Source of the DNA: Blasia pusilla
Lineage: Eukaryota
DNA: 64,000 nt
Reading direction: 5' to 3'
NCBI GenBank assembly: GCA_050084515.1
Contig: CM114271.1
Span: 930,001-994,000, forward strand
The notes beneath the pieces are model-generated. The model did not search any database. It had not been told where the DNA came from and was given only the letters and a program-made list of their open reading frames with translations. The position numbers and the translations under genes are program-made. Positions 2,076-59,289 of the stretch are shown one piece after another (the first letter of the stretch is position 1; each line of letters opens with the position of its first letter).

Positions 2076-4161
2076 AGCATTTGTTTCACGTCTACCTACA
2101 CACTTGGTGTCTCGGCTCTTGCTGGACTTGGAATTCCACGAATGTGCGAGCCTCGTGAAGAGTTCTCAACCTCAACTTTTGTCATACACATTAGCACGCA
2201 GCTCCTACAGACCCAAATCGGAGAAATCATAGGCTGTGATATCATAGCTGGCGAGTTAGAGTCGAGGAGTGGAACACTCACGGCAGAGGAAGCTGATGAA
2301 TGGTAGGGGGATCTAGGGAAGGCGACTTCCTTGAAAGGTGTGCACTTAATCATTTCCTATCATTGCATTTGTCCATTTTCACTACTTTGTTTCTGTTACC
2401 CTTCCAAGTTCCATGAGCCGTCAACTTGCTGTGAGCGGATAAGCTCCTCTTCTGGCCATGCAACAAACGTGTCACTGATCTGAAATTCACAATGCGCTCC
2501 CAATTCCACAAACACCGGTTGCAATGGCTGCTCCCACACTGCGGGTACAGAAGCAGAAAATAAGGGACGAATTCCGCTCTCTTGGACTACTCATCTCTCT
2601 CCTTTTTTAAATTACTTAAATTTATTTATTTATTTATTTCCAATTTTTTTTCCCCCTAGCCAGCAAGGTAGTTTTTCTTGGAAACCGTTTATTTCAGGCA
2701 GGTGGTTTAGGGTATCGGTCTAAGAGGGAATTTTTTTCTCCATTATTTTTTGAAAAAGTTCATTTCTAATCGATTTTTAGGCATGCCCAACAAATTTAGG
2801 TCGCATGGAAAACAAGCTGGCTAAAATTTTCCCAGCCTCGTTTGGACTTCAAAGCATGTTTGGAAGACAAAAAAAAGTTCAAAGAACTATTCGTAGTTTG
2901 GATTGTGGAATGTGACATACTTCTTTACCACCTTCAACCCCCTTCTCCTTAGAACGAATATTTGTAAACATCCTTTGCAAGATTTGAAAGTGAACCTGGT
3001 CAGGCCCCCCGCCTATTGGGAGAGAAGGATCCCTCCGCTTTAGAGATATTCAAGCTTCTAAAATGAAGCTTCAACGTATTAAAAGAGAAACCCTCCTTAC
3101 CTTGGCAAATTGCAAGGTTTCCTTTTGCAATGAAATATGCACTTTTGAACAAAGTCAAAAGAGCTAGGTAACAAGTTAGATTCATGCTAGCTACGGCCTT
3201 GGCCATAGATCTATTTCCAACTTTGGGTTAATAGATTGAGCAATAACAACCGGATTGCAGAGCACTAAGAGATTGAGCAGTAGCAAGAGATATCAGACTC
3301 CATAGACCAGAAATACAACGTCGGCCAACAATGAGCACATTGGGGTAGGGACTTGGCAACACGCAGGGCAACGCAGAAGCACATAGACTCATAGAGCAAT
3401 GCGGTAAAAGGTAGGGCAACTCCAACCCACATAGAAATGCTTAGATGCAAGCAATGCGGAAGAACATGGAGGCCAAGCTTACTCCAACTGCACAATGTCG
3501 AATCTCAAGGGCGGATTCAAACAAAGCCGTAAGGGCACAAGTTGAGACCAAAGTTGCATAATGTCACTGTCAAATCTCTAAGATGGAAGCAAAATGAGCC
3601 ACGGCGAGTTGAGACCTTGTGAGTCAGCGAGATTCGTTGATGATCTAGGATGTCGTGCAAATACACATCGCTGCCAACATACATCGATTGTCAAGCACAT
3701 GTATGTCTAAGATCCATCTATATACCTATGAATCCTAACATCTCTATACATGAACGACTGGAAAACCCCAATAAGTTGAATATGAATTGTAAACTTTGAT
3801 GAAATCTGCAATCAACTATGCTTCATCCAAACAGCCATATTCATGAATCAGATACACATTGTTGAAATAGCAAGGGAAAATGTACACAAGGACTCCCAAA
3901 ATATCTGTGTTCTTCGTGCAATCCTAGCCCACTCTTCAAGAGAGAATCCAGGCTCAATACATACAAGTTGCATTGTATCACAGATCCCAATACGGGTCTA
4001 ATCCTAAGGAAGACGAGCTCCAAATGAGCTTCATCCAAGGTATACCCCCTTGGGCACCTCCATGGGTGACTTGTACACACACATCAACTTCTTCCTAGCA
4101 AGTCACTACCAACTTGTAGTACATAGAGTACTAACTCCCTAACAACTACATATATGATCCC

Positions 4162-4912
4162 TGTCACATCTGAGTAGCCGATAGGCCGAGATCTATCGTG
4201 GATAGGGCATAAGAGCAAGAGGACTATCTTGAGTGTAACTTTGTCCCGCGGTGTCGGACGAGGTTGAGAATAAGTATGTTGTGTCAGGAAAATCGTTTTT
4301 GACAACTTTCTTGTTGAGGTCTTTCATAGTTAGGTGACTTGTTGAAGAGGTCACGCGCCCCTGGTAACCTGTGCGCACATGTTACCAAGAGGATAACTAT
4401 TTTTAGCAAAAAGCCTTTTGGCTCTTCCCAACCATATATAAGGGAGGAAGATACGCACGACAACTCTCACATCTAAGTAGTCAATAGGCCGATCTATGGT
4501 GGATAGGGCATAGGAGCCAGCGAAGTGTCTTGTGTGTAACTTTGTCCCACGGTGTTGGAGGAGGTTGAGGATAGGTCCATTGTGTCAGGAACATCGTTTC
4601 TGACAACTTTCCTATTGAGGTCTTTCATAGTCGGGTGACTTGTTGAGCATGTCACCCGCCCCTGGTAACCTATGCGCGCACGTTACTAGGAGGATAGCTA
4701 TTTTTAGGGGAAGAGCTTTTTGCCTCTTCCCAACACTATATAAGGGAGGAAGATGGCTTTCCCAAGCCATATTTCTCATGTTGGGCCATTGGAGTATCTC
4801 TCTTGTGTGTGTGTGAGCTAGCGCAGGGTGGATAAGGCTTGATATGCCGATGTAGATTGAGGAGTGGAGTTTTAGGCCGGGTGTGCCATTTTTAATAGTG
4901 TTTATTTTTACA
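4162..4912 (+). repeat. E1 left end: A' (4162-4452), B' end remnant (4453-4462), AC, complete A' (4465-4912)
   Basis: A ~290-bp segment is duplicated. The junction reads gcacgaca-ac-tctcacatc. A TATATAAG lies at ~4737, and A' is followed by the putative PBS taagaaagatg. Confidence 0.8.
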
Positions 4913-5894
4913 TAAGAAAGATGTCAAGGGGCTGATGGTAATTTGTTGTTTGTTGGCACGCAAACAAGTTGCCTTGATGAGGAGCCCCTGGAGACGCTGG
5001 ATGGCATTTTGTTGTTATTTTTTTGTTCGAAAGACTATGGACGGAAACGCTGTCCGTTTTCTCAGGTTTTTGTTGGTGCAAACTGACTAGAGGCAACAAC
5101 ATAGTACAATGCTCGGATAACATGAAGAGGGACAACGACGGTCGCAAGTGAGTAGCGGAAAGTGTCGGGAGAGAGGAAGAGAAGCATTTTTAGAGCAAGT
5201 CTCCATAGCCACCGTGAGGGCGACTAGGTCAGGTCTAGGCCCTAGGGTTAGGGCAGAGCCGGGAGCCAGAGCCGAAGCCAGGGGGCGGCGAGCTAAGGAG
5301 CCACGGCCCTTGGCCACGACCCTTCCCATCAGTACCTCCCGTCGAACCTCCCGTCAATAGCAGCACGGCCAAGGGCCGTGCTGCTATTGATGGGAGGTTC
5401 GACGTGTTGGTCGAGGAGGGTGTCACGTTGCGGAGGTTGTCATATCACATGGAGGAGTGGATGTTGACGGTGGTGTAGGTTGGAGGGCGTGATTAGGTTA
5501 CCCATTCGAGTCCCCTTTCCCACACTTATCTTATGTGATTGAGAGTGCTTGGTGTCGGATAGTTGATGGGGCTACATGGGTGTAGCAATGGTGACGAGGA
5601 TAGCCTCCATGCATCTGTAGCATGTTTGTGGATATATGGCGGTTTCCGAGTAGGGATCACATGTATGACCCAAGAGTATTAGTGGTTTAGGTGAGTTAGT
5701 TGGGAGGCTCATGGTGAGCCCGAGTGTTGAGTGTTGAGTGTGCGTGAGGCCGGGTGTGTCGTCACGGAATTACCATAAGCGTTGGTGAGCTAGTGAGGAG
5801 TGTGGGAGACTCTTGGTGAGTCTGAGTGCGTGAGCGGGTGAGACAGGGTTGTCATCATGGTGTTCTTCTTGAGTTCGGAAGAACGGGGTAGTGC

Positions 5895-5927
<33 letters not shown>

Positions 5928-5959
5928 GGTGACACCCATTGGAGTGAGATACCGAGCGG

Positions 5960-8900
5960 TTATGAGTGAGGAGCTACCCCGACATCCATTCTTGGCTGGA
6001 TTGTCATTACTAGACATTGGGTCTGGTGAAGAGATCGCAGACGGAGGCAGTGTCACTTGGCAGGAGATGGACAAGATGGGCCATTGGGGCATGCGTTGTT
6101 TCTCGAGTGCAGTGGGCACCATCGACTAAGATGATTTTATCCAGGAGTTCGACACGTGGTGCGACTTCCAGGAGATACGGACCCCAAGACGGTTCAACCC
6201 TTTCATGGCATGGAAGGGGTTGTTCTAGCACTTGGAGGTTCCTCCGATGGATGATTATATGGAGTTTCGATCACTATATTCAGTAGAGATCGATGCTTGG
6301 AGGATGTATTGAGCTCTAGGGTATGTGTCCACTAGTGGTCGTGAGGTATATCATGGGATCGTGAGAGGAGAGAAATCCACCCAATCAGCCCAGAGACTAG
6401 ATGGGGAGGAGGGCAGTGAGATAGGCGATGTGGCAAAGACCTCTGGTGGTAGAGGGCTACCAAGATTTCATCCCAAAGTGGAGTTCTTCCGACAGTTGGG
6501 GAAGAGCTACCAGGGCGTATGCACCGACAAGCTGAAGAGTCTAAAGGATTTTCAGCGACCATTGAGTGAGAGTCTGAGAGAGGAATTCACGCGCATGAGG
6601 AGGCTGATCATTGCTAATTATGGAGTGACTGAGGCGTAGTCAGTCCAGTATTAGTACGGGGTTTTGGACCGAGAACTACGGAGGAGAGTCCAAGATGCCG
6701 TACTTATTTACACAGCAAAGCCCACATTGAAGGTGGTCTTCAAGTTGTCTGAGCGTATTGAGCTCAACATGAGTGAGGAGCAGGTAGTGATCGCAGGATT
6801 TTCTCGAGAGTCGATGGATCCACGAGCGACGGTGACCCCACATGTGCCACAGCAAGCACCAGTACCACTGGAGCGGACAAGTGTGCCCAGAGAGTAGGGC
6901 GGGTACCGTGAGTCTATGAGGCAACGACCCATACCTACATATGTTGCCAAGCAAGGACCGATGTTGTCTTGTTGGATGTGTGGAGGGGCCCATAGGCAGA
7001 GAGATTGCACATAGTATGGGAGAGGACCACGAGCGGCTTCGATTGCTCAGGAGCCATAGAGGATGGCACCACCATAGTACAAGTGTGACTATTGCCACAG
7101 ATATGGTCACACTTGGGATAGATGTTTTGACCTTCGTCAAGAGGCACGTCCAGAGGTAGACCGAGGGCTTGGGGGCGATTGTCTTGGAGGAGGTCGGAGA
7201 GTTGTTCCTAGACATGGTGGTAGAGGACCACCACCAGCCAAAGGAGATGGAGCAGGAGCACCAGAGCCGGCACTTCTCTCACGCATCGATCAATTGGAGT
7301 AGAGGATTGCTCCCATGACGATGATGCAGCTCAGGGAAGGCACGGAGCCGCGAGCAGCTAGTGTGGCTCCACCTTCTATCTCTTACCCTGACCCGGGTGA
7401 GGATCTCGCTAGTATGGGATTTATGTGTAGTGCAGCTCAGGTTGAGGCTGCTGCAATGGTGATTGGGGGTGTTGCGAGAGGCATTGAGGTCATAACCTAG
7501 GGTCATTCATCAACTGGCCGAGGGTTTGGATGTCAGGATCCCAGGTCAAGAATGTTTTGGGAGATGCTGCGAGTAGTATGATACTTGCAGGAGAGTCAAA
7601 CATGTTCTCCGGCGTACATTTTGGAGAACGTGCCATTGTTGGAAGACGCTCGTGCACGTGTGATGACGAGTTGCATCAGGTGAGGTCTTGGTTGGAATCT
7701 GCTGTGTTGTTAGATGCAGCGAGAGTTGGATTATGCGCTCATCGTCCATGACTATGGTGGACGAACCTGATACCATCATAGGTACTAAGTCGAGCATACG
7801 ATGGAGTCCAAAGAGCACCACATCTCACAATGGATGCTATTTTGGGCTCAGGGCGTCGATCTCAGGTGGTGACGCGGGATGATAGACCACCGTTGGCGAT
7901 GTCCAATAGGGTGGGGGAGTTGAGGGCAACCTTACCTACATTGGTGAGCTTCCCAACATCCCACGCCTTTCGTTAGGGAGGTCTAGGCATGATTTGGGAT
8001 GAGGTGACCCGAGCATTGGAGGAGCCTACAACAGATGAGAATGAGCGTGCCATGGGGTTCGCTAAGGGTACTACGGCGGTGCCAGGTATGACTGAGGCAT
8101 CTCGAAGGCAGGTGTTGGGGCAGGCGATGGACCTCAACTGTCTCACATGGATAGTATGCCTAGGTATGGTTGAGCAGAGACGGATGCAAGTATCATCCAT
8201 GCCGTCACGTCCATGTCTTGGAGCATTGCCTACAGGGTCTGTACAAGCTTTGGCTGGGGGTGGGATGAGGAGAGATAGGCACCCATGTACTTCTAGGGAC
8301 GTTGTTCGAGTGGAGAGTGCGAAGGCGGCCAGAGCAGCACATGTTGATTTTTTGGATGTGGAGCATGGTGTAGGAGGTCAGAGTGGAGTGGCTGTTGCAG
8401 AGGTTGCTACATACCAACCAAAGGTTGCGTCCTCTCCGAGTGAGGTCACGATGGAGACTTGGGAGCATGTGATAGGTCTCAAGTTGATAAGAGGAGAGCG
8501 ACGATGAGTTCATAGGCACGTCAATTATTTTGCCTTCATTATGAGAGACTTGGGTATGTTGAAGGGTCATGGGATACGGATTGAGTTGGCTAGTGATACG
8601 TCAATCTTTCGTCGACCCTACAGGTATTGTGATATGGAGCGAGCCTTGATTCAGAGCAGGAGTCAGGACTTGTTGGAGGCAGGACTTGTGGAGTTATCAC
8701 ATGGGGAGTACTCATCTGCCACAGTCATGCCAATGAAGAAGGATATGTATAGCAATTGGACGGATAGGCGGATGTGTGGAGATTACCGTCCTATCAACCA
8801 ACAGACAAGGTCAGATCGGTACTCCATGCCTACTTCTGAGGAGATCTTTGATGCGGCAGGGCATGCAAAGATCTTGAGTACTTTAGATCTCCATGCTGGC

Positions 8901-11520
8901 TATCATCAGCTTCCTATTAGGTTGGAGGACAGGAAGAAGACATCATTATGGGGGATAGATCGGTTTGGGAGAGATTGCTTGTATCAATAGCGCTTCTTAC
9001 CATTTGGATTGAAGAACGCGCCTGCAGAGTTTCAGAGAGTGATGGATAGGATTTTGGCTGGATTGGATTTTGTACGATGTTACATAGATGATATTCTTAT
9101 CTTCAATTCCACGGTTGAGGAGCATGAGCAACCCTGGAGGAGGTGTTTTGGCGATTGCAGTTACATGGAATGAAGTTACATCCGGGCAAGTACAGATTCT
9201 TTCAGGAGTAGATTGAGTATTTGGGACACACCATATATCCGAGTGGGTTAGGTGTTTAGAAGACGAAGGTGGAGGCTATTGGGCAGATTCCACGCCCTAC
9301 AGATGTGAGTAGAGTCCGAGCGTTTCTTCGACTGGCGAACTTCTATCGACGGTATATCAAGGGTTTTAGTGCGATCACAAAGTCTTTGACCTTGTTGAAG
9401 AGACTTGATCAGGTTTGGTTGTGGGGAGATGATCAAGAGCGGGCATTTCAGGAGCTCAAGGACAGGTAGACGTCCTCACCCATTTTACAGAGACCGGTTA
9501 GGGGTCGCCCATTCCAGTTACATACGGATTGGAGTTTGTTGGGTCTAGGAGCAGTGCTTACTTAGAGGGATGAAAAGGAGAGGGAAATCATTGTGGCTTA
9601 CGCGAGCCGATCAAACAACATTGAAGAGGCAAAGTACAATTCCTACGAGGGAGAGTGCTTGGTTGTAGTGTGGGCTATGGTACATTTCAAGTGCTATTTA
9701 TTCGACAACCCTTTCACACTTATCACTGATCATCAGTCGTTGAGGTGGTTGATGGAGTCCGAAACGCTTATGGGAAAGCTTTCTAGGTGGGCTCTATTAC
9801 TACAAGATTATGAGTTTGAGGTGGTTCACACGCCAGGTCAGCTGAACGAGGATGCGGATGGGTTGAGTTGTAACCCATGTCTGAGTCAGAGAGACGACAC
9901 AAGAGCTCGATGGCACGGAGAGAGTGATGAGGAGATGGTGCCTGGTTGGCATGCATTTGCCTATCTTTGTTGGTTGACTATGGTAGGTCAGCCGTAGGTG
10001 ATGACTCTAGTGGTGGGGTCGGATGATGAGTCTTTGGATCTAGAGGTTAGTGAGGAGGCGACAGGTGGTCGTGATATCCATGACGACGTGGAGGTTGTGG
10101 AGTTCTTGCGCATTGGCATCACATCAAGCATAATGAGTGCTAGGGAGCGGGATCGGATCCTACAGAAAGCCATGAGGTTCAGGTGGGAGGGGACTCATAT
10201 TTTGCGGGTATGGGGAGATGGTAGGATATGAGTGGTACCTCACCCTTCCCAGCAAGCACGTGTAGTGCGACATTCCCATGAGGAGTTGGAGCATTTTGGA
10301 GTAAAACGTACTTACAGCTTACTCCAGGTTCAGTATTGGTGGCGCGGCATGCATACTAGGGTACAACATTTTGTGGGCAGATGTATGGTATGTGACAGAG
10401 TGCAAGCATCCTTCAATGCTCTCACTCCACTGTTACATCCTTTTCCGATTATGGGTTTAGGTTATCGGTGGAGTTTAGACTTTACGGGACCTTTGCCGTT
10501 GACGGGGCGTCATCACAAGTACGTGTTGGTCATGGTGGAGCATTTCTCCAAGTGGATAGAGTTAGTGGCACTACCGGATAAGGCGAGCAAGGTAGCAACT
10601 TATGCATTTCTATATCGTTTGCTTAGTCACTTTGGTGCACCATTGGAGGTGTTGACTGACCAAGGTATCGAGTTCAGGGGAGAGTTTCAGGCCTTGTGTG
10701 ATCATGCGCTGATAGATCACCGCACCACGTCCAGAGATCATCTTGAGGCGGATGGGTTGGCGGAGAGAGTAGTACAGACGATGAAGAGAGGGTTGCGCAA
10801 ATATGGCTTGCAACGGGGACAATTGAGGGAGTAGGACCTACAGTTGCCGTGGTTGGCTATGGATTATCGCTTTAGTCGGCAGGTATCCTTGGCGTCATTT
10901 TCACCGTACTTTTTGTTCTTTGGGAGAGAGCCAGATTTACTTGCACCTATTCGAGGTAATATGGCGGAGGTGTTAGATCTTGATGATCCAGATGTGTGGG
11001 TATAAGCGTGTTCTCAGAGGGTGGAGATTTTTTGTAGAGTTATGCCTACGACCTTTGAAAACTTAGCTATTGCTCAACATAGAGATACATTGAGGTACGC
11101 AACCATTCATGGAGGAGTTTATCATCCAGGGATTAGGAGGTTTCATCTTGGAGATTACGTGTATTTACAGTAGGCAGCACCCACGACGCTAGATGTTAGT
11201 GCAGGGGGCACCATCCTATGTGTGCGCAAGGTATTATCGACCGGAGTCCTCATATTGGAGGGACGGGGTGGTATAATTTGGAAGGATCATGTGCGAAATT
11301 GTGCGCCATGTCATCTTTTGAACATGGACGGGACAGTGGATCCGAGCTTGGCAATGGTACCTACATGCTTGAGGTGTATGTTGTGCGGATCTACGAGAGA
11401 TGCAACCACCATGTTGGTATGTGATGGTTGTTCTCGAGGGTGGCATATGTCATGTCTGACCCCCCTTCCCCCCCTCTTGATGTAGTTTCCACGGGACGAT
11501 GGATGTGTCCAAGATGTGTA
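5960..11520 (+). pseudogene. E1 gag-pol (gag, MTase C-half, RT, RNase H, integrase, PHD), many stops
   Basis: Motifs seen: FIQEFDTWCD (capsid); YILENVP and ENERAMGF/LGQAMD (MTase VI, IX, X); RMCGDYRPIN, PFGLKNAP and YIDD (RT); AYASRS/YEGECL (RNase H); HxxLxH...CxxC, SLDFTGP, LTDQG and DGLAER (DDE integrase); CMLC...CDGC...WHMSC...CPRC (PHD). Protease and the MTase N-half are deleted at ~7500. Confidence 0.9.
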
Positions 11521-11590
11521 TAGGGTAGTAGGTCATGTCAGGGAGATGTGACATTTTCTATCTGGAGTTAGGGGGATCCAAGTGCCAGCT

Positions 11591-11737
11591 AGGGGGGCGT
11601 TTGTGTGATCTCCATGTATATGTATGAGTTGATTTCTGTACATGTGTGCATCTACCCGTGTGTGGGGACGATCGATGTTGTATGGTGTGGATGTGACCAA
11701 CGATGTATGTTATATGGCGATGTGTATGGGCACGACA
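11591..11737 (+). repeat. E1 polypurine tract (agggggg) and right-end segment B' (11602-11737)
   Basis: The PPT is followed by TT and then tgtgtg...gatgtgtatgggcacgaca. No copy of A' follows. Confidence 0.8.
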
Positions 11738-13854
11738 TCCCCTCATGAGACCAACAACCAACTAACCCACGATCCTATAGGTCCAAGTGGAGCCATACAT
11801 GGCTAGGAAGGTCAACCTCTCTAAGGTTGTCACTCCTCATAAAGGGATGGATGACTTACACTCGTAGGTCATCTCCTAAGAATAGGTCACATATGACCTC
11901 TCGAAATAGGGAAGTACAAGACCTCTCTAAGGCCTCGATACTATCTCACCCTACACCTCATCTACCATGACAAGGGCAACAACACTCAACAAGGCAAAAA
12001 GGTTTGAGTGAGAGCATGGAAATGCACGCCTAAGTTAGCATGATTGTGCCGTCATTGGTCTAGTGCTACACTTCCTTAACTTTAGATTAGGTTGCACCCC
12101 TTCCCCACCTTAGAATTCGACTACCCAACATGAATGGTCTGAATTCCTTGAGTACCCATACTTGACACATGGCACCGGATCACATGTCTTTGGTTCTATC
12201 ATCTATGGCAACCACAAATTGGCCCAAAGCCCAAAGGTATTCCAATTCACTGCAGATACTCCTCTACCGTGAACTGGCACCGACAAACTTGAGCTTCCAT
12301 TTCCCGACACAAATTCCCCTAAAACCTATGTTTTCCTAGTGTCAACCTTTCCGAGCAGTCACTTGTCGAAAACTTATTTCACTCACTCGAAAACTCGGCC
12401 AGAAATCGTAAACAAAGGGCACTAATTCTAGAAATCTTTTGGCTGCGGATACTCGTAGCACCAATTTTGTGCGGACGTTGTGAATTGACACTTAGTGTGT
12501 TTCTCTTGACCTTAGACTTAGTTTTGTGTTTTGAGATTCGTTCTTTCCCCATAGGTTAAGGTAATACGTGTGTATCAATTGTCTCTTATTCGATTCTGTT
12601 AATCCATCTTCTCTCCTTCCCAAAAGCTATAATAGCCCGATTGTTGGCTCTTCTCGTGCATCAAGCATAGCCCAATTCATGCGCCAGAATGACTAAAACC
12701 AATAATTAAACTAGTATGTGGCCCTTTGAGAGGGATGGGGAGAGAAAATGACTAATAGGCATGTGTAGAGGACACGTGGATAGCCTAGATGATGAGGAAA
12801 AACAAAGGGAGAACTTATAGGGATCGTTAACAAGAATTGCAATCTCAAGCGCGAAAATATGTATACTCGGAACGCACCAAGAGCACAGGCGAGCCACATA
12901 CCACAACTCCTACTCCATTGCCAAAAAAAAACAAAATGACCACTGACTTCCCAACGTCTAACCGACGAACGAATGCAAGGGGAGGGAGGATCGGAGCTTT
13001 CTCTGCTGTGAACGAGTGGGAACAGAAGTTACGAAACGGCACTGAAATGGACTGGATTGAGTGCTCAAAAATAGAACGCGTCAGGCCCGCTTGAGATCTG
13101 AGCTCTTTACCGACCGACGCTCCAAGGCGGCAGGACCCGTGGGACTAGCGCTAGGAAAGCATATGGGATAATGGGACGTACATGTCAATGGCTAGCATAT
13201 TGTACTAGTGAGCTACTTATGGATTTAGGAGAAGATAACGAATCTCTCGTCGGCCAAAGTCGCTATTAAGGTCTCACAAATCTCACTAGTACTAATCACA
13301 CGAACCTAAGATCACACGAATCTCACTAATACTAATCACACGAACCTAAGGTCATACGAACCTTATTAAGTAGACCTGAATTCAATCCAATCACACAAAC
13401 CAAAGTGATGTGATGGATAGCCTACCCAACGAAACATACATGTACGGGTTATAATACTAATTTTGAAGTGAAAAAAACCTATTTTTAATATGCAAAATGC
13501 GTCCTAAAATGACACTACTCTTCATAAAGTGGTCCAAAAGATCTTACAACACGCATGTGACACATAACCGCTATTTCCCTCCATTAATGAAAATTAAAAC
13601 TCAGTTTTTTCAAACCTTGAAAATCTCTAAATTTTGGAGACTAACAAAACCCTAATTAAACCTGTGGTTAGTCAACGGTTAAGTGGAGCATGCTGTTCGG
13701 TCAGCGAGCTTCACATTCCACTTTTCAACAATCGCAAGACGGACGAAACTCGAACATTTGCTTGGAGAGCACTTGTTGCTATGGCCACTATTGGAACAAA
13801 GTGCTCTCCAAACAAGTGTTCCGAAACTCCATTTATGCAAAATGGACATTACCT

Positions 13855-14117
13855 GATCTTGAAAAGGAACTGGCAGAATCCAAAACCATGAACAAGGATG
13901 AAATCGGGATCCGTTGGCGATGGCGCTGAGTTCGGGGGAGCTCTTGCAAAGGAACTGGTAGAATCCAGGACCATGAAACAAGGCTGAAGTCGGGATCCGT
14001 TAGCGACGGCGGTGAGTTCGGGGAAGATCTTTGAAAGGAACTGGTAAAATCCAGGACCCTGAAACAATGATGAAATCGAGATCCATTGGCGCTTGCGCCG
14101 AGTTCGGAGGGATCTTG
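13855..14117. repeat. Three tandem 85-86 bp units
   Basis: ggaactgg-a-aatcca-gacc...gatcc-tt-gcg...gagttcgg recurs at 13866, 13951 and 14037. Confidence 0.9.
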
Positions 14118-16582
14118 GAGTTTCGCATATATAGAGAAGGTAAGTCAAATTATGATATCATGTCTACCTTGTCTGATTCTGTGCCATGAAGATGTGCACA
14201 ACCTACTGATATGATGCCTGGTCTGGAACCGCCTACTTCCCAGGGTATGGGACTGGATAGGTATGTATTCTAAGCTTCAGAGATGGAGAGAAACGTCGAG
14301 AGGAAGGAGTAGAAGATGTCGGAGACGGTGTCAATCAACTAAAATGATGTAGCTGTCGTTCAGATGAAAGAAATGATTGGAATGTTGATTAGAAGTTTGT
14401 TGCCACCTTTGGAGGTATGAGCAGTGAGAAGACGACGACTCCTGTTCACCGGTATGATGGCAATCATTATGGTTCAGATTTGGATTGTCTGATTCAAAAT
14501 CGAAAAATGCGAATGGAGTGAAGAGAATGAACGGAAAGAAGCTCGAGATTGGAATCCCACCCCACATTGCTTGGAGTGAGAAGTTTGTCTCAATCATGGT
14601 ATTATGTATTTGTTAAATCAGCTGCGGAGCATGAGGTGTCCACATGACACTGCACATGGACCACTAGACACAAGAGGAGAGGTAAAGGAGAGAGGACAAC
14701 AAAAAGTAGTTTTCTTCCAGTTGAGAGAAACGCTCACCAGCCTCAAAATTACCGTCCGAAGTAGAACTGCCTGCAGTGGGAAGAATACTGCACACGTTTA
14801 TCTCAATCATGGCGGTTACTTGTTCCATCCGCTGTGATCCCAGTCATCATGGCTAGTATAAAAACTACATTGTACTAAGAGAAATCACAGATGCCTACAG
14901 ACTCCCATGACCCACAACCTCCCAATGGGGACCGAGACTTGAAAGCTCATGAACTGGGAAAGGCAAGGCTGTGCTCAAATACCAACATCCCGAGAAGCTG
15001 ATGGTTCTACAGTGGCACAACCTGAGGAGAAGAGAATCAAAAGGTCAGTGTGAAAGATATCCAGAAAAGTTTGGCTGAGACTGCTCTATGATTGAGCACT
15101 CCTGGGAGCATGCTCTATGATTGAGAACTCCTGGGCGCATGCAAGCATCTGCTATTACTTCGGCATTTTGTTTGAGCTTTTGATTTGAACAATCTCTGCT
15201 CTGGTGCTCACCTCCAGTTCATGGCAACGCTAGCCCAGTGCAAATTCCCAAGAATCCATCTCAAAAGTAAAAGCCAATGAACCTTTGAATAGATGCTGCA
15301 GAGGCTCAAAACCACTCTATTCTGTCTGAAGCATCATGGCTACCTGCAACTAAACTCAAGCAGCATGTTCATTTGAACCTTGGACTGGATGTTGCAGATT
15401 CTTCAATATCAGCTGAAGCGCAACTTAGTTTTTGAATCAATCTTATACTTCCAAACTAATGGTAGACTTCATGGTAACATGTAGTCAGCCAGCATAGACC
15501 CATGTGCTGACAGTCATTGAAGCGACAAGATGCTAACATTTGTTTGCAATTCATAACAAGTTATCCAAGCTCACCCCGCAATTTCTACAGATGAAAAAAT
15601 TGTTGCAAACCAGTGATCAGTGCACAGAAAGTACACTTGGTAAACATACTCTCTCCTTCATTTCAGAGTCAAATTCCAACTCCCCTTGTTACTCAAAACA
15701 AACTCACCTAGTTTTTACAGCTAGCCGTAGTAAAGCATTCTCCACATTACAACTGATCCAAAGTACTATACAAAGCCCAACTCTTAGATTGCACTGATGG
15801 CGCTCGGCGCTGTTTAGTGAACTAAACTCACCCATTTTGCATCCGTTCAACTGCTTCAGATAATAGAGCAACTTCCCAAAAGCTGCCTTCGAAAGATCCC
15901 TTCAGGATGGTGGTGGCTAATCAACCACCAACTCTCACCAACTGCGAGGCAAATACAGTCCTAACGAGGTATATGTATCACCTGCTTGCCTGCTGTAGAT
16001 TCTAAAGCTGTACAAGCTCTGCAAAGAGTATGGTGAAATCTGCAGCCTACTGCATAAGTACAAGGGCTCTCTCGCATTCCAAACTCCCAGATTGGGCCCC
16101 TCAAGAATGAAATACCTCTCTCAGCTCACAACACGGACATAAGCAACAAACCTTGCATCTACACAGAGTTGCCATAGATCAAACAGCTACTTTGAACTGT
16201 TAGGATCATATGATGAAGATGCAACTCTGTACCCAACCTGGCAAAGAGGAGTTCAAGAGTGAATCCTCAATTAAGGCACTGGGGGAATGTTTGTGTTAGA
16301 TGACGGAAACCAGTAGTACATACTGTGTGGAATTGTCAAGTGGGAGCAATGTCGAGCCGATAAAAAGGAAAGACCAGGACCTGGTTCCTGTCGGAAGAAA
16401 CTCATGTTCAGACTCGTCGGAGGTGGCTCGGATGGTGGCCCAGCAAGAAGAGTGGCAAGAATTTCCTCAACTGGGAAGGAGATGAACACAACATGTTCAC
16501 GGTGAGAAAGAAGGCCCCAACTTAGACATGGAAAGACCCGGCTACGTGCGATTACTGCATCGACTGAATGTTTTTGTGTAGA

Positions 16583-17085
16583 GTGATGGAGAGAAAGAGA
16601 TACACTACATATCCAATGGATTTGTCAAGTGAGCAATCTCCAATTGACAAAAACAAAGACCTATCCGGAAACACAGCGATCCTCCATAGGCCTTGCTCCT
16701 CAGAAAGTAAAGACATGTGAGTGGATATCCCTGAGTGAAGTAGACGAATCACATATCATGTGGATTTGTCAGTGGGTACTTCTGTGTGAAGTGATGGACA
16801 TGAGCACTTCCTATTCCACGAATTTGTGAAGAGAGAGGACAATCTCTAATCGAAACGAAGGGGAGGCCTCTCAAGAGGACACAGTGATCATCAATAGGCC
16901 TTGCTCCTCAGACCGGAGACATGTGAGTGGATATTCAAGTTTGAAGTGATGGAAAGAAGCCCTACGTATTCCATGGATTCATCAAGTGAGATAGAACCAT
17001 CTTTAATCGACATCAACGAAAGACCTCTCAAGAAAACGCAGTGATCCTCCATAAGCATTGCTCCCCAAACGAAAACATGTGACTA
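16583..17085. repeat. Three degenerate tandem units (~155-210 bp) directly downstream of the 17098-17478 gene
   Basis: gtgatgga...cag(c/t)gatc-tc-ata-g-c-ttgctcc...acatgtga recurs from 16583, 16791 and 16946. Confidence 0.8.
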
Positions 17086-18039: not shown

Positions 18040-18985
18040 TGAATCTGCTCGAGGGACGCAACGAAATCGGCTGGCGAGATCTTGGTGCCAGTCCTTGAAC
18101 CTCCGGTGATGCAGGTAGGTGGGTAGGGCCGTGAAACAAATGTCTACTTCCTTCCTTCCTTCCTTCCTACCTTCCTTCCTTCCTTCGTACTGTCGTTTGT
18201 TCCCAGATCCAAGATACAGTGGCCACCTAAAAAGCAGCACCTCTCTCTCGGAATCTTCCACCACCTCTTACTAGTTTGATCTTCGTAACCAGCAAAAATT
18301 AAAAATATATTTAATTTCCACCGCCTGCACAATCCAGCCTTCAGTCCTATCGTACTGCGATGTGTACTCTCCAAGTCTCCATCAGCTCGAGAAGCAGCAG
18401 CAGGTGAGGATGACATAGACTGGGAGACGAAATCCTTTAAATACCCAGTGAGTGCTTTTCAGCTGTCGTGCACCGAAAGGGGACATGTCCACGAACACCC
18501 ACACCGCAATTATCTCGTGAGAAGCTAAATTTGATGCAACCAGACCTAAAAGAAGGACTACGGACTCGTGAGCTGGGCAGGCATGCAGAAGGACCAGAAC
18601 TGTAACCTCGAGGTACACATCCCCACCATAGCTAGCTGGCTGGCTAACCAGCCAGCTAGCCTAGACAGAGTACCACTCTCGTCTCCAGGGTTGGGCAACC
18701 GATTCGATGTGTATCCATGGCTCTACTCACAGGAAGCTGAGCGATGTCACTGTCTCCTGGCGTTGAACCATTCTTCGGATCCCACAAGCTGAAACCAAGC
18801 AGCAGCACCGGTAAATTCCCACCAATCCTCAGGTCAGAACTCTTCATAGACAATGGGTGTGTGCCTTTCTCAGATACTGACAATTCGAAGGTGGGGTCAC
18901 AAACGAATCGTACACAGTCGAGAATCCATGTGGAAAAGTGATGCACGACACAAAACCCTTTATGGTTACCTCTCTGGGGCTGATA
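18040..18985 (-). repeat. Diverged inverted paralogue of 1255-2075; contains (CCTT)n at ~18146-18187
   Basis: Colinear nucleotide blocks are shared with the reverse complement of 1255-2075. Confidence 0.8.
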
Positions 18986-21217: not shown

Positions 21218-21760
21218 GGAGATACCCACGCAATTCCAAGAGGAATTTGGAATCCCCAGAAAACCAAAATGACCCTCTCAAACCAAACGAATCCGAGCTT
21301 CCACAGAATTCCTCGAGTTCCCTTGATCCAATTCAACCAAAGAGCTCGAAAACTCCTCCCGAATCTCCCCCACCTTCACATGCAACTGTTGCAGACGTCC
21401 TCACACTTGCCACCAGTTTCAAGTCACAGCGGCAGCAACGACAAGCTCGTAACAATCCACACTTCTCTTCCACACACGAGAGTGTGAAGGAACTCAGCAC
21501 TCGAACCACAGCTTCGGTGTGGTCGACACTCGTTACCACAGCATCTTCTCAAAAATGGCAATCCACGACATCCAAAATGACCCCAAAGCCTCCGAAAAGA
21601 GTGAGAAACATCGAACACATAGATCCAACGGCGCCAATTCACTGCACTGCAGGATCTCCTGCAACGAGGAAAAAGTGCAGGGCAGTCAGCCACCGCAGCT
21701 TCCAACAGGAGAGGACAAGTAAGTAGATTCAAAGCCCAGAGTGACAGACAGGAGTCACAG

Positions 21761-22159
21761 GAGCTCTGCAATTCGGTATATTCAATGCGGTGCACTACTG
21801 TAGTATTCTACCGTGAATCAGTAGTAGAATAATCATATAATGTAGACCAGAGACTGACAGTGACGACACCATTTCAGTTGTGCATCTATAAGATTCTATG
21901 TCTCTACTAAACCTTCTCTTCCTCTGTCCCCCTATCCTTCTCGCATTCTTTTTCTTTTTCTCTCTCTCTCACTTCTCTCTCACTCTTTGTGTCGTTGCCT
22001 GTGGTCTAATCTGGGATTCGGGAAAATCAACAAGAGCTCTGCAATTTCAGTTTATACTATGCGGTACGCTACTGTAGTATTATACCTTCACACAGTAATA
22101 GTCGAATCATCGTAGTTTAAAGACCAGACTGACAGTGGCTGCACGATTGCGGTTGTGCA
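21761..22159. repeat. Direct repeat of ~125 bp (21761-21884 and 22034-22159) separated by a CT-rich spacer
   Basis: Both copies share gagctctgcaatt, tgcggt-c-ctactgtagtatt, agactgacagtg and gttgtgca. Confidence 0.8.
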
Positions 22160-22770
22160 CATATACCTCTGCATAATCCTTTATTCTCTTCTTTTCGTTC
22201 TGTGTCATCTCATGATTCCGATCTGAGGAATCGGAGCGAATGGGAAAGAAGAAAAACAAAGACATTAGTGAAAGTGGATGCACATTGCACAACCTGCCAT
22301 GCCCAGCTATAAATCCAGCCTGCCCTGCGATCCCTGCCCTCCCGCGGTAACCCCGAAATCACGCACCTCCGGCATTAAATGCTGGGCGTGGGACTGGGCG
22401 AGCGGGAATGGAAACCGGACGAATTGTGAATTTCACCTCACCCCCATTTTGCGCTCGTTTATTCATTAAGACGCTCGGCACGCAGTAAGTGGTGGGCGTG
22501 GGCGTAGCCTCGTAGGCACTTGGCTGCATAGGCAGACACCAGTGGTCTTGAGATCGAGGTCTCTCTGTAGAGTCAGTATTGAACCAGACTCGAATGTGCA
22601 TGAGAGCCGGCATTGAATGCCAGGGCTATGGTGGATCCTTCCCCTGCCATCGTCGCACTTGTGGTGGTGGTTGGTGCTGTGCCATAGCCAGATTGGGGTT
22701 AGAGGGTTTCAGGGTTTGGAGACGGAGACGGCGACGGCGACGGGCGACCTAACGATGGCGAGGGTTCCAC

Positions 22771-23084: not shown

Positions 23085-24770
23085 TGAGCCGGTCCCATGC
23101 GGCCGGCTCCTTGCACGGTCGCAGTCGGGGTCGGCGCGACCAAGGCTCGGACAGTTTCCTTTAGCCCGTCAGTTTTTTACCGGATACATATAAGCCTATT
23201 CGGGTTTTTTAAATGTGAGCCTGTCCTGTTCCTATAGAGATTCGTAGTGTCCAGTTTGTTTCCGGTGGATCAAATGTGTGTGCAGCGGATAATAGGTCTC
23301 GGGGTTAGTTTTCCATACGTATATTGACCAAATTGACCTAAAGTCCTACAAAACCTTTACTAATCTTTAGTAATTCCCATTATAACCCCTCCTAATTCCT
23401 TCTACACTCTAAAAAATTTCGATGGCTTTTATTACCAATCGTAAAAACTATTATCAATCGTCAAAACTACTGGCGGATATTAATAGGGTCGGATGACTTC
23501 CGATACTCTGTTTTTCATGGCCGGTGACCCCTCTGTGAAAATAATTTCCAGATTGGTAAAACACGTTTAGGAACCGGCACCTTTGACAAAGAATTCCGGT
23601 TCTGTCCGAGCCTTTGGCGCGACCGTGCAAGGAGCCGGTTGGAAATAGTGGTAATAGGGTCGCAAATTTCGCGCCTTGTGTATTTCTGGGCGCAAATTTT
23701 ATTGAGGTCCTCGCAATTTCAACTGTTAGATAACAAGCATCCGAACAAACATCCGCGACCCCAAGGTCGGGTCCTGACGACCTCGGCCGCATGGGATCGG
23801 GTCCTGAGACGGGACGTTTCGGAGCCTATCCCGACTCTCGTAGGTTGAAACGGATTCCGGCCCCGCGAGCTCTGAAAGTAGAATTTACATGTTCAAACTT
23901 TTCGCTACACAATCCCGATCCCATGGACACACTTCATTTTTTTAGCGACCCTATAAGAAAAATAGTGGAAAAGTAAGACTAAGGAGCCGGTCCCATGCGG
24001 TCGGTTCCTTGCACAGTTGGGGTCGGCGCAACCCTGCAAGGAGCCGGTTGGAAATAGTGGTAATAGGGTCGCCAACTTCGCACCCCGTGTATTCTCGGCG
24101 AGAATTTTATTGAGGTCCTAGTAATTTCAACCGTTAGATAACAACCATCCGTGACCCTTGGGCTGGGTCCTACCGACCTCTGCCGCATGGGATTGGGTCC
24201 TTAGGACCCGATCCCATGAGGTCGTAAGGAAGTGGCTAGGACCCAACCCCATGGTTCCGGATCTTTGTTGATCCGACGGATGAGATTCATGCGACTTAAA
24301 CAGAATTCGTGATGTTAGAACATAAGGCGCAAATATCTGCAATTTTGTTACACTTGCTAGAAGAAAGTAACGAAGGGCTTTACGAAGGTCGTAGTGACCC
24401 TACTAGACTGGGCAGGGAGCCGGCCCCATGGGACTGGGTCCTAAATAACCATTGTGCGGCCTTGAGAGGGGGAAATTTGAGAGTTAGGACCTGGTCCCAT
24501 GTGGCAGAAGTCAGCAATACCCGGCCCAAAGTCCTGGATCAACCAGATCCCACGAATGGGCTATAAGCACGTTCAAGGACCCTCGACCAGATTCGCATCG
24601 TTAGAAAGCAAGGCGCAAGCTTTTGTGACCTTGTCACCACCCATTTCCTGTTATTAGGATTGGCGAAGAGGGAATAAAAATTGAGAGATTCTTGTGGTTG
24701 CTGTACTTGTCCGACAACGACCCTACAGTTGCGACTAGGCAGGGAAAGGGCTCCATGGGACCGGGTCAGT
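23085..24770. mobile_element. Cluster of about four Tourist/PIF-Harbinger-like MITEs (~220-280 bp each)
   Basis: A recurrent imperfect TIR gga(c/g)c(c/t)g(g/a)tcccatg bounds units 23085-23805 (interrupted), 23983-24200, 24204-24440 and 24487-24768. TAA/TTA flanks occur at several ends. Confidence 0.65.
23141..23615. mobile_element. hAT-type MITE nested in a Tourist-like MITE
   Basis: TIR caaggctcggacag / ctgtccgagccttt with a perfect 8-bp TSD GGCGCGAC (23133-23140, 23616-23623). The sister host copy at 23983 lacks the insert. Confidence 0.88.
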
Positions 24771-25499
24771 GTGAAAGACACATGGATAGGTTAGATATTG
24801 AGAAAAAAAAAACAGCCATTGCATGTAGTGGTCGTAAAAAATTAATTACATGTTTGAATTTTTTAATCTATTTTGAATTGATAGAAAAAATAAATACGAA
24901 TGGAAACAAAAAATTAATTAATTAATATTTTATATCAAAATGGGTGATCTTAGATGTACAATAAGAAAAAAATTTGGTATAATGGAAAAGGAACAAAAAT
25001 TTACAGATTTTTTTACTTAGTTCATATCTGATGGGGATGGAAGATGAATTTTAATCCAAAAGGAATAAAAATTGTTTAAATTTTCGGAAGGTGGAGTTAT
25101 TTAGGGGAGTGGGATATCATTTAAATTTTAATTGGGGTGTGGAATTACTCATAAGAGTGGAATATTATTACTCTTCTAAAATTTAATAAAATTTAATTAA
25201 TTCTAAAATAAAATAAAATATATGATCATTTTATAAAATAATCATGTTAATTCATATTTGATATTTAGGGAAAGGAAAATAAATTTTCATGGAAAAGGGA
25301 AAATATTTCATTAATTAAAATTAACGAAGAATTTAGGTATTGGATGTTATTTTGGAGAGTTGGATATTATTTAAAATTTTATTGAAAAGTAGAATTATTT
25401 TAAAATTTCAATGTTATTACTCTTTTAAGATTTCAGAAAGTGGAAATTATATTCAAATTTTGAAATGAAAAATAATTGTAATTTATTAAAAAAACATTT

Positions 25500-25803: not shown

Positions 25804-27287
25804 TTATTATTAAGAGAGGATGGGGTTAGGGAACAATCCTCCTATGTTGATATTTGTCCTTTCAAAGCTCTTCTATTGTTGACATGTATTTGAGGAGTAC
25901 TTAAATTAAAAGGACCAAAAATTAACATGTGCAAAGAAAATTCCCCCCTCAATGGTGCATAGCACGGGCATCATACCATTGGATAATATGACAAATCACA
26001 CCGATCCCTAGTAACTACTTCCGATCATAACCAAATTGAGGAAGTTGGGCCATTTCTGCACCCAAAAGTTTTGGGCATAGAATATTGGCAATCCTTTATG
26101 GTCGCCATTTCCTAGCATGCATGGAATGTGGCCCATAGAGATAAAAGAAACCTGAAAAAATGGTGATAGGGAACCCATCAAATGTACAAAAGAAGGGGAC
26201 TAGAAGAGTAGAAGTTCATGCCTATCCTAAATGTAGAAGTCCACATGTGTGCTTTATAATTTTTGATGATTTTCTTCTTTAAAAATATTTATAGGATTAT
26301 GGCCTTGAGACGCAAGAGTTAATTTCCCTTTGCTTATGGGAAATTTCAAGATTTTTCAAAGAAACTTTGATTTAGTTTGATCTTGATTTTGATTTTAATT
26401 GCCTGAAAAAAATTCTAATTTAAGTGGTCGGCTTAATAAAGAATGTTGCCACTAGGGGAATTATGGCCTTGTCTCCATGCGTGATGGTTCTCCCACTCTT
26501 GGTTAGAGATGTAAATATAACCCATTAATGCTTTATGAGGGCCACTCAAATCAATCTTTAGAGTGATTTTTGTGGATGTTATAAAAACTATTGTTAAGAG
26601 ACTTACAAGTGGATCCTTCATTTCTTTCAAAAATAGGAAAAAAAAAGGGTAAATAAAACTTGTATGATTGCATGGGAGCAATCATCATGCTTCCCATACA
26701 TTCAAAAAATATGCATGTGCTATCAAAACATTTTCTTGTTACGCCATTCTCATGTGTCAATTAGAGAGATGTTCGCCAATCGAGAAACTATCCTCCTTTA
26801 ATAGTATAGACGTTTTCAAGAAATTCCATGTATCCTCCGACAATCCTTAGCGATTTTCAAAGGTTGCCAAAGGCAGAAACACACAATGGCGGTATGGTCC
26901 ATTCCTACTCACACCTTACATCTCATACAAATGGTGATTTTTAATTGATCAATCTTCATTGATATTTCATCTCTAGACCTTTCTATCAAGACAACACTCT
27001 CACTCCCTTGGAATGGGGATATCTTAAACTCTTGGTTTCAAAAATTCTAGCTTGAATATTTTTGGATTTCTATGAGATATTTCTTCAGGTTTTACAAAGC
27101 ATTTATTCCCTTTTCTTTATGAAACTTGTCATGACCATACGGATTATGTCGTAGAGTATAGTGTGCTAGTAGAGGCCATACCTTATGTAGGGCCGTAGTG
27201 TCTAGGTAGAGATGCGGTTTCATACATAGGGCTGGGGGTTACTCAGTTGAGTGTGACTTTTCCAATAGGGCCCGCTCTTAGGTTGGA

Positions 27288-27506
27288 GGATATAGTGTGG
27301 AGTGCACTCAAAGAACAGTTAGTTCTTTGAGTTGATCCTGTTGCGTTGGGAGTTAGCCTTGGTAGTGAGTAGAGCTCTTGGCTATGGTGGTTCCCGCAAG
27401 CTTCCACTCGAATTCTCCCATCGTGGAGTGGGTTTGGCTCGATTGTATGTGATTCTATACGTGTTTTATGACAATAGTTCTTTCACGGATTTCACTCAAA
27501 GAACTA
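27288..27506 (+). promoter_or_regulatory. E2 TATA-like box, putative transcript 5' end and self-complementary primer-binding site
   Basis: ggatatag lies at ~27288. tagttctttgag (27320-27331) is the exact reverse complement of ctcaaagaacta (27495-27506), which immediately follows the ...ggatttCA end of A. Confidence 0.7.
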
Positions 27507-27617
27507 GAGTAGATCGAGGGTAGCTTCGATCGTGGATCAGTAGGATCTGGTTAGGGCTGATTGTGTACTCAACCGTGGATGTTCGTGGCTTGTGGCCTAT
27601 GTTGGATTTGGAATCTG

Positions 27618-36600: not shown

Positions 36601-36919
36601 CAATCGAGCCAAACCCACTCCACGATGGGAGAATCTAGGTCGAAGCTTGCGGGAAACACCATAGCCAAGAGCTCTACTCACTACCAAGGCTAACTCTCAA
36701 CGCAATAGGCTCAACTCAAAGAACTGACTGTTCTTTGAGGGCAAGCCACCTTATATCCTTCAACCTAAGAGCGGGCCCTACTGGGAAAGTCACCCCCAAG
36801 TGAGTAACCCCCAACCCTATGTATGGAACCGCATCTCTACCAAGCCACTCCAGTCCTACATAAGGAATGGCCTCTACCAGCACACCATACTCTACGACAT
36901 AATCCGTATGGTTATGACA
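27618..36919 (-). mobile_element. E3: Ty3/Gypsy-DNMT retroelement (family 2), structure A-int-B with no terminal direct repeat
   Basis: TCTG/TCTG TSD (27614-27617, 36920-36923). The host leader of E2 rejoins seamlessly across it. A = 36552-36919, B = 27618-27721. Confidence 0.95.
27900..35030 (-). pseudogene. E3 gag-pol (gag, protease, MTase ~31250-32215, RT, RNase H, integrase, PHD)
   Basis: A 327-aa RT/RNase H ORF (29678-30661) contains YIDD, and an integrase HHCC ORF lies at 28730-29134. The rest is broken by many small indels. Confidence 0.9.
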
Positions 36920-39680: not shown

Positions 39681-40119
39681 AGGCTAGGCTTCCCCAGTCA
39701 TTCTTGTTGTCTGAGGTGCTTAGGATTCTATCCATGGTTCCTACGCAGCCTATTGAGCCGACACTGGGGACTGAGGCATCTACATCGTTTGAAATAGACA
39801 CGGATGCAGCATCTACTGCAGTATTGCGGATGGCAACTTCACTGTTGGGATCCCCATTATTTTCGGCCACGGAGCTGATGGCTTTAGGAGTTGACTTAGC
39901 TCATGTATTTCAGCTAGCAGCCACGTTGTGTGAACGTGGGGGTGTTACTCCTACACCTACTGAGGTGGATGAGGGTGTTGCGGTGGAGCGACCCTCTAGG
40001 TCAGGTGTAGCATTGAGTACCAGTGCTACTTGGCAGGCAGCAGCGGCGAAGATGGATGCATTACCAGCCCGGCCAGCCATTGATCGTGAGAGGCTTACAC
40101 CTGGTGTATGTATGTTGGA

Positions 40120-59287: not shown

Positions 59288-59289
<2 letters not shown>

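Follow-up and report, generated by a model that had tools for sequence, protein, structure and literature searches.

How could a retroelement come to carry the end of its own 3' segment in front of its internal region? This question is raised by a stretch of 64,000 nucleotides (nt) of the genome of Blasia pusilla (GenBank assembly GCA_050084515.1, contig CM114271.1, positions 930,001 to 994,000 of the forward strand), hereafter called the window, in which positions are counted from the first letter. The window contains four full retroelements, E1 to E4, and two solo units, all of one superfamily. Throughout, A denotes the terminal segment that precedes the internal region (int), B the segment that follows it, and a slash the joint between two segments; the A and B of E1 are written A' and B'. 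In E1, one target-site duplication (TSD) encloses an element whose internal region is preceded by a covalent B/A joint, which is never so in the usual permutation. The best explanation, an even call when taken as a whole, is that E1 is a bryophyte-type Ty3/gypsy element with a Dnmt3-like methylase and a PHD finger past the integrase, and that it is an A-B-A-int-B product of a two-unit circle opened at the other of its palindromes.

Anatomy of E1 and its target-site duplication

E1 occupies 4162-11737 of the plus strand, between TCCC at 4158-4161 and the same letters at 11738-11741. It begins with A'1, the first 291 nt of the A' repeat (4162-4452), which starts with TGTCACATC, contains a TATA-like tatataa at 4435-4441 and is 85% identical to 4465-4755 (246 of 289 aligned bases, with 27 transitions, 16 transversions and 4 gap columns). 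A remnant of the 3' end of B', acgcacgaca (4453-4462), and a 2-nt spacer AC read directly at 4463-4464 follow, and then A'2, the full A' of 448 nt (4465-4912, from tctcacatc to tttttaca), an internal region with many stops (4913-11590), the core of a polypurine tract (PPT), aggggggcg (11591-11599), and the 138-nt B', which ends in gcacgaca (11600-11737). An initial annotation, made from the sequence alone, had described the same succession inside one TCCC duplication, and reading and alignment confirmed it; the end of B' was correctly given there as 11737, but its start, placed at 11602, was 2 nt too late.

The 10-nt remnant fits the conserved B-end motif CGCACGACA. In an alignment of nine B ends, the full 9-mer is present in four, and GACA forms the final four bases in eight, the exception being the first B of E4, which reads TGACA. 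Past ...ggaggaagat, A'1 passes into acgcacgaca, where A'2 and the related solo unit described below continue with ggctttcccaagcc; acgcacgaca is absent at the corresponding place in both. Since the ends of the two A' copies mismatch, a plain 303-nt tandem duplication is excluded on the sequence as the origin of the E1 5' region. An origin of the 5' extra unconnected with integration could still be imagined, either by two adjacent insertions or by a local duplication with B-end-like filler, and elements of this group do nest and cluster (E2 lies in E3, and the two solo units are close neighbours). However, the whole of E1 is flanked by TCCC/TCCC, and no TSD of its own was found for 4162-4462 (flanks tccc/actc) or for 4465-11737 (caac/tccc); because neither part has its own duplication, separate insertions are excluded. 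Filler, for its part, would have had to match the 9-mer exactly 2 nt before the start of A, with the geometry seen in E3 and in hundreds of sequence reads. We therefore regard an origin of this kind as very improbable.

At the A/B joint of E1, 157 nt are missing from A' and about 128 nt from B', and A'1 ends about 14 nt short of the predicted transcript start. The divergence between the two A' copies is 15%, against 2.5-3.3% within E3 and E4, and E1 is an old, dead copy. A spacing of about 31 nt from the TATA-like box of A'1 would place a start at about 4466, within the first bases of A'2 (region 4435-4470), which is probably a coincidence. A lone 42-nt fragment of the 3' end of B, 88% identical to that of the solo unit A*-B* introduced below, lies on the minus strand at 3651-3693, 470 nt upstream of E1.

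Related elements and the B/A joint

The other elements of the window show how A and B are otherwise arranged. E2 (27618-36919, minus strand) is A-int-B with no second A or B; it is bounded by TCTG (27614-27617 and 36920-36923) and sits in the 5' internal region of E3. E3 (27127-45608, plus strand, bounded by AACT at 27123-27126 and 45609-45612) consists of 27127-27617 and 36920-45608 once E2 is taken out, and reads A-int-B-AT-A-B. What looks like a head-to-head pair of E2 and E3 is thus one element, with its own TSD, inside the other. E4 (48019-57338, minus strand, flanks aaat and aaaa) has the same order with 27 nt between the first B and the second A. These 27 nt (48493-48519, minus strand), ttccggcttttaacgtgacagacggta, hold a second gtgacag, perhaps from a partial duplication of the palindrome. 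The two solo units, both on the minus strand and 52 nt apart, belong to different subfamilies. A*-B* (57456-58106, ATCG on both sides) is a very abundant relative, read at a depth of about 3600-fold where the internal regions have a third as much, and further pieces of A* occur at 47789-47870 and 59197-59307. A''-B'' (58159-58770, flanks aatt and aagt) has an undeleted A/B joint and is the closest relative in the window of A' and B' of E1.

The two A copies are 96.7% identical within E3 and 97.5% within E4, and A is 92-94% identical between elements. All of the copies in the window contain many stops. No nucleotide similarity was detectable between A and B, and in every element the two ends are occupied by different repeats. 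The A parts of E1 and of E2-E4 likewise had no detectable nucleotide similarity. The initial annotation had noted that A and B otherwise differ strongly between E1 and E2-E4, and took the shared geometry as independent support for its mechanism. The geometry itself, GACA, 2 nt and TGTC, is indeed common to E1 and E3 (spacers AC and AT). To call the support independent was, however, an overstatement, since the internal regions of E1 and E2-E4 are 67-72% identical and their B ends 82-87%, and the lineages are related.

A sister family came to light in a protein-guided scan of metagenome contigs; the 35 loci obtained are 84-91% identical to one another, and the PPT, B, A and primer-site motifs recur in them. 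All three complete copies are A-int-B (L067 with TSD TGTT, L080 with TTCA, L075 with ggta/agta), and all four regular independent 5' ends are of the type flank/A-int (L067, L075, L078 and L080). Together with the window, four arrangements were thus observed: A-int-B (E2 and the three complete metagenome copies), solo A-B (two units), A-int-B-A-B (E3 and E4) and, with a truncated first A-B unit, A-b-A-int-B (E1). When the ends were pooled, seven 5' ends were flank/A-int and one, that of E1, was flank/A-b-A-int, and eight 3' ends were B/flank and two B-A-B/flank. The 4-bp TSDs are perfect in six of the nine units (TCCC in E1, TCTG in E2, AACT in E3, ATCG in A*-B*, TGTT in L067 and TTCA in L080) and match at three of four positions in the other three (E4, A''-B'' and L075). 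The units begin and end in the inverted sequences TGTC(A/G)TG...CA(C/T)GACA, which meet at the B/A boundary as GACA-NN-TGTC, and none of the units examined starts at the start of B or finishes at the end of A.

The two kinds of joint behave differently. The A/B joint is precise in E4, in both solo units and in E3 (with T where E4 has C); in L071 it holds 14 nt of inserted primer site, and in E1 it is deleted. The B/A spacer is 2 nt in E1 and E3 and 27 nt in E4. The joint motif CGCACGACANNTGTCA occurs three times in the window with at most 2 mismatches, against 0.37 expected (1 of 100 shuffles reached three), and two of these matches are the B/A joints of E1 and E3. In a set of viral contigs (viral_contigs), the motif was found at 60 loci, none of which had a BLAST hit to six A, B or 5'-internal queries; by our estimate, about 60 or more such loci are expected there by chance. 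L094, which is more distantly related, contains a palindrome TGATAGCTATCA that we read in its context and put down to chance in AT-rich DNA.

Raw reads with the same species label, placed on 44900-58900 and hence not covering 4440-4470 of E1, were examined for joints; the results concern the best-supported joint types and loose ends, and the two runs, X11 and X12, gave near-identical numbers and are probably not independent. Of the 613 joint reads in X11, 466 have a 2-nt spacer (AC 213, GC 92, GT 83 and AT 78), a figure made up of five listed joint classes in which the spacer was resolved after the flank bases that also match had been counted. A variable spacer of 1-4 letters, as the read joints had seemed to show, was dropped on this ground, all five listed classes having 2 nt. 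The four spacer variants differ from one another by transitions, the type of change that predominates in these reads (see below). The commonest continuation of reads beyond the end of B is GC followed by TGTCACATCTGAGTAG, the first 16 nt of A' of E1 (loose ends at 57456, agreement 0.37). About half of the B ends of A*-B* in the reads run into the start of A, and units with a B/A joint, or A-B arrays, are therefore common genome-wide.

Read depth is about 1000-1600 on the internal region and about 0.3-1.2 on single-copy flanks (about 1% of the run), that is, about a thousand-fold difference. DNA of this type is mishandled by assemblers, and the span covered by reads does not include E1; an assembly artefact at 4440-4470 might thus be suspected. 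However, since the two A' copies have diverged by 15% and also carry indels, they do not represent a collapsed or duplicated identical repeat, and the joint shows the family's own geometry. An artefact is therefore the least probable of the explanations that we considered, and even combined with coincidence it remains quite improbable. Among some 2200 listed places on 44900-58900 where the reads of X11 and X12 differ from the reference, C>T (646) and G>A (544) changes predominate, as expected for methylated repeats. In E4, many single-base indels specific to the reference are corrected in more than 80% of reads, which means that E4 holds many private frameshifts.

Several metagenome loci are rearranged. 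In L071 (4923-5819), the internal region breaks at 4923 and is followed by an inverted piece of A, by an inverted internal copy at 5021-5488 that matches 956-1423 at 92%, and then by an A that begins near the predicted transcript start, by a 14-nt stretch of primer site (CTCAAAGAATTGCT), and by B and the flank; this looks like an aberrant product of reverse transcription or joining. The 5' end of L064 (6167-6410, the same locus as L063) is made up of an inverted B with the PPT and some 115 nt from the 3' part of the internal region; the final 12 nt of A and the primer site are joined to these, which gives an inverted-terminal arrangement whose 3' end lies beyond the contig. L074 (at about 4600) and L076 (at about 5767) carry independent deletions from inside the PHD-coding region to the exact first base of B, with loss of the PPT and with short G-rich microhomology at both joints. 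Elsewhere in the window there are unrelated repeats, namely an inverted pair (1258-1989 and 18175-18978, 66% identity) and several short tandem arrays (13855-14119, 16572-17082, 21757-22165, 23616-24204 and 25017-25439).

Predicted priming signals and proposed integration from a circle

The PPT aggggggcg stands directly ahead of B in E1-E4 and in the metagenome relatives. At the boundary of A and the internal region in E2-E4 and the metagenome family, an 11-mer is complementary, with no or one mismatch in all seven copies, to a site in A; this site follows a TATA-like box at a distance of about 31 nt. The E1 family has the same layout in other letters: catatttctcatgt at 4768-4781, the predicted self-primer, lies 31 nt past the TATA-like box of A'2 (4737-4743) and is complementary by eye at 12 of 14 positions to the predicted self-primed primer-binding site acataagaaagatg (4910-4923), which overlaps the final bases of A'2. 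Against the corresponding site of the solo unit, the same primer site is complementary at 13 of 14 positions, also by eye. In an 11-mer scan, the favoured site of E1 has 2 mismatches, which is weak alone, and a blind scan prefers position 137 of A' with 1 mismatch, a value reached in 7 of 300 shuffles; our choice of site rests on its position past the TATA-like box and on the parallel with the E2-E4 family, not on the scan. This layout is apparently a signature of self-priming of the Tf1 type. Since the PPT abuts the start of B and the primer site abuts the end of A, the repeat unit of the complementary DNA (cDNA) would be B-A.

With such a unit, the following mechanism may be proposed. Reverse transcription would place one such unit on each side of the internal region, with the start of B and the end of A as the ends of the linear cDNA. 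The integrase would ignore these outer ends and use instead the palindrome GACA-NN-TGTC inside the unit, at the B/A boundary. If both strands were cut after CA, the products would be two recessed CA-3'OH ends, each with a 5' overhang of 2 nt, the usual substrate of strand transfer, and insertion of the cut ends would, from this geometry, produce a 4-bp duplication. Because the primer sites give a B-A unit, A/B is the joint expected of a circle and B/A the internal palindrome; because the units end at that palindrome with ordinary integrase TSDs, the integrase would have to act on the internal site.

A circle with two tandem B-A units, the end of one A being joined to the start of the next B, would contain two palindromes. 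Opening one of them would give A-int-B-A-B, opening the other A-B-A-int-B, and cutting both A-int-B and A-B. The four arrangements described above are exactly the pieces of such a circle cut at its palindromes. Only A-int-B-A-B could by itself yield a terminally redundant RNA, from the start in the upstream A to the end in the downstream A, and insertions of the other three forms would presumably be dead on arrival. The B/A joint would pass through the RNA and stay constant, and the A/B joint would be remade in each cycle and vary; the spacers seen at the former, 2 nt except in E4, and the variable sequence of the latter are as expected if this is so. The initial annotation had assumed a later deletion across the A/B joint of E1. 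The joint is deleted, but the loss need not be later: the ends may have been nibbled before the circle closed, in which case the deletion would be an imprecise circle joint. Imprecise joints are a known class among those of retroviral circles with two long terminal repeats (LTRs).

The same sequence could, however, have arisen from a head-to-tail dimer, A-int-B/A-int-B, within one TSD, from which a single deletion of about 7.4 kb left A-b/A-int-B. Such a dimer might be formed if a free one-unit circle recombined homologously with an A-int-B copy already integrated, or if a molecule that was itself dimeric were inserted. One deletion is needed under either scenario, the integrated A-int-B form (E2 and three complete metagenome copies) is the commonest and thus a ready substrate, and large internal deletions that end at B are known from L074 and L076. 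On the other hand, no dimer was seen among the four full elements of the window or the 35 metagenome loci, and an extra recombination event is required besides integration and deletion. A dimer also still needs a free molecule with a covalent B/A joint, which makes it a version of the circle model rather than a competitor. We consider an origin through a dimer unlikely, and less likely still a later rearrangement of an element inserted as A-int-B-A-B. The latter would involve unequal crossing-over between A copies through an intermediate A-int-B-A-int-B-A-B, a large deletion in the first unit, and loss of the terminal A-B by exchange between B copies. Unequal recombination between the repeats of LTR elements is common, and solo A-B units, one expected product of exchange between A copies, are present; but three separate events inside the same TSD would be needed, and B, at about 110-138 nt, is short. 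This course of events is improbable.

Several observations weigh against the opening of a two-unit circle as the origin of E1. The model predicts the E1 form about as often as A-int-B-A-B, which was seen twice, and the E1 arrangement was found at none of the seven other 5' ends (E2, E3, E4, L067, L075, L078 and L080). The initial annotation had proposed to look for undeleted A-B-A-int-B copies and had itself named a lack of further copies of this arrangement as counting against its proposal; no second copy was found, with none among the three other full elements of the window and none among the four independent metagenome 5' ends. All six independent metagenome 3' ends are B/flank (L067, L068, L074, L075, L076 and L080), and the competent form, A-int-B-A-B, was not seen among the metagenome relatives, which short-read assembly may disfavour. 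The B/A joint of E4 has 27 nt and not 2. In E1 itself, the A/B joint is not intact between position 291 of A' and the last 10 nt of B', the 15% difference between A'1 and A'2 comes without an independent date, and its ratio of 27 transitions to 16 transversions, which other pairs share, is no test of whether the two copies arose in one event. The E1 5' region lies outside the span on which reads were placed, and in short reads A-int-B-A-B and A-B-A-int-B give the same six junction types and are inseparable. The transcript start, the poly(A) site, the circles and the integrase activity are all things that we infer. Finally, E1 alone cannot separate the opening of a circle from a tandem dimer followed by deletion.

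The earlier proposal that a circle was opened at its other att site thus agrees with the B-A unit, the four products and the 4-bp TSDs, but it has no second copy to set beside E1 and shares its fit with the dimer. The reciprocal opening of a two-unit circle remains the most economical interpretation, resting on one degraded copy. A broader possibility, to which we give somewhat less than an even chance, is that one entire lineage among the streptophyte Ty3/gypsy elements integrates from circular DNA, and not by the ends of linear cDNA, through a single att palindrome, GACA-NN-TGTC, inside the reverse transcription unit. Integration through the circle joint, once proposed for retroviruses and later abandoned, might then be a natural and obligatory pathway in this lineage; A-int-B-A-B would be the only form that propagates, and E1 would be the predicted reciprocal product.

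Encoded proteins and comparison with known systems

The proteins place the elements among the Ty3/gypsy retrotransposons. By Pfam, E1 (plus strand throughout) has reverse transcriptase (RVT_1, 8508-9170), RNase H (RT_RNaseH, 9566-9994), integrase (rve and Integrase_H2C2, 10232-10831) and a PHD finger (11174-11482, E 4e-7), and the Gypsy order of reverse transcriptase, RNase H and a DDE integrase with an H2C2 zinc finger is common to E1, E3 and E4. In all three, a PHD finger and no chromodomain follows the integrase; that of E3 (43489-44853, E 1.2e-4) scores 22.5 bits, below the 24-bit cut-off. A C5 methylase upstream of the reverse transcriptase was found by Pfam in E3 and E4 only, in E4 at 52444-53082 (PF00145, E 5.9e-7, 29.7 bits against a cut-off of 22) and in E3 with 16.1 bits, below that cut-off. 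In E1, no Pfam methylase hit was obtained in 20 of the 22 open reading frames (ORFs) of at least 60 amino acids, and the methylase-homologous stretch (7528-8169, plus strand) was recognized by nucleotide homology only, with 67% identity to the methylase stretch of E4. No tyrosine recombinase (Phage_integrase) was hit in the 48 ORFs scanned for it (13 and 35). Proteins that bear the names of Marchantia polymorpha, Calypogeia fissa and Sphagnum match the methylase ORF of E4 at 64-75% identity, and reverse transcriptase and RNase H domains occur in several of them as well; these matches by themselves make a bryophyte host probable. PF00145 stands in the precomputed Pfam column of 36 of the 40 listed relatives, and a search of viral_contigs with the same ORF returned no relative.

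The accepted view is that LTR retroelements insert their linear cDNA by the outer LTR ends and that circles are dead ends. Compared with canonical Ty3/gypsy elements, those of the window lack two complete terminal direct LTRs; they share the TG...CA termini, the short terminal inverted repeat, the 4-bp TSDs, a predicted primer site after A and a PPT ahead of B. They are LTR-retrotransposon-like, with a shifted register of integration, and their topology resembles that of elements with split direct repeats. The split order A1-int-B1-A2-B2 of PAT-like DIRS elements, Ngaro and TOC1 of Chlamydomonas is seen in E3 and E4. Split direct repeats are usually read as the trace of a circular intermediate recombined inside the repeat unit, and in elements of the DIRS type a tyrosine recombinase is encoded and TSDs are absent. 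The elements of the window, in contrast, have a DDE integrase with a zinc finger and 4-bp TSDs, and no tyrosine recombinase in the scanned ORFs, and for these reasons they are not DIRS members. If the circle interpretation is true, split direct repeats would result from integration of a circle and would be no mark of tyrosine recombinases.

Integrases that cut circle joints are known from retroviruses. Cleavage of palindromic LTR-LTR circle joints by integrase has been described for foamy virus and HIV-1 (PMC1180852, PMC1905944), and the joints of retroviral two-LTR circles resemble those described here in having a CA...TG palindrome that integrase can cut on both strands, so that ends competent for integration are restored (PMC1180852, PMC1905944, PMC4372172). 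The position of the palindrome differs: in retroviruses its use at the joint is a side path, whereas here it lies inside the reverse transcription unit, with 2 nt between CA and TG, and is seemingly the sole site used. The retroviral LTR-LTR palindrome has 4 nt between CA and TG. The family-level result, a Gypsy integrase that would use a palindrome inside the reverse transcription unit and so produce four kinds of insertion, is of more interest than E1 itself, although E1 is the sole observation that bears on the use of both palindromes of a two-unit circle. For annotation, tools that search for paired LTRs will miss these elements or set their bounds wrongly, and A-int-B copies have no LTR pair at all.

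With regard to priming, the Tf1 and Sushi/Tcn1 elements are similar in having no tRNA-type primer site and, next to the 5' repeat, a sequence complementary to the predicted start of the transcript; for the Tcn1 elements of mosses and club mosses, self-priming was predicted by Neumann et al. (2019, PMC6317226). From the description available there, Tcn1 elements are chromoviruses with ordinary LTRs, whereas the present elements have a PHD finger instead of a chromodomain and permuted ends.

The closest described system is KnitGypsy-Dnmt3 of Klebsormidium nitens (de Mendoza et al. 2018, PMC5890265), shown in Fig. 4c of that paper with DIRS-type repeats, A-coding-B-A-B, around Gypsy domains; SymbioDIRS is described there by the same formula. 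Its polyprotein joins a C5 methylase of the Dnmt3 type to a pol of the Gypsy type. The pol domains of E1, E3 and E4 agree with it in order, the methylase being above the Pfam cut-off in E4, below it in E3 and seen as nucleotide homology in E1, and E3 and E4 share its A-coding-B-A-B order. Thus the A-int-B-A-B arrangement of E3 and E4 is already in print. In the accessible part of that paper we found no explanation of it, nothing about TSDs, joints, primer sites or a mechanism, no mention of A-int-B, solo A-B or A-B-A-int-B forms, and no PHD finger past the integrase ('PHD' occurs 0 times). A 2026 preprint (10.64898/2026.05.21.726589) names 'streptophytes (Gypsy-DNMT3)' in passing in its accessible part, and our search on split direct repeats with an integrase, KnitGypsy and Gypsy-DNMT3, which did not extend to subscription journals and Repbase, gave nothing further. 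Different from KnitGypsy-Dnmt3 are the A-b-A-int-B order of E1 and the A-int-B order of E2 and the three complete metagenome copies; the closest proteins that bear a name belong to Marchantia, Calypogeia and Sphagnum and not to Klebsormidium, no K. nitens sequence having been compared. If A-int-B-A-B is the sole competent form, this would fit with A-coding-B-A-B being the form drawn for KnitGypsy-Dnmt3, and integration from a circle, if true, would explain the 'DIRS-like repeats in Gypsy element' of 2018.

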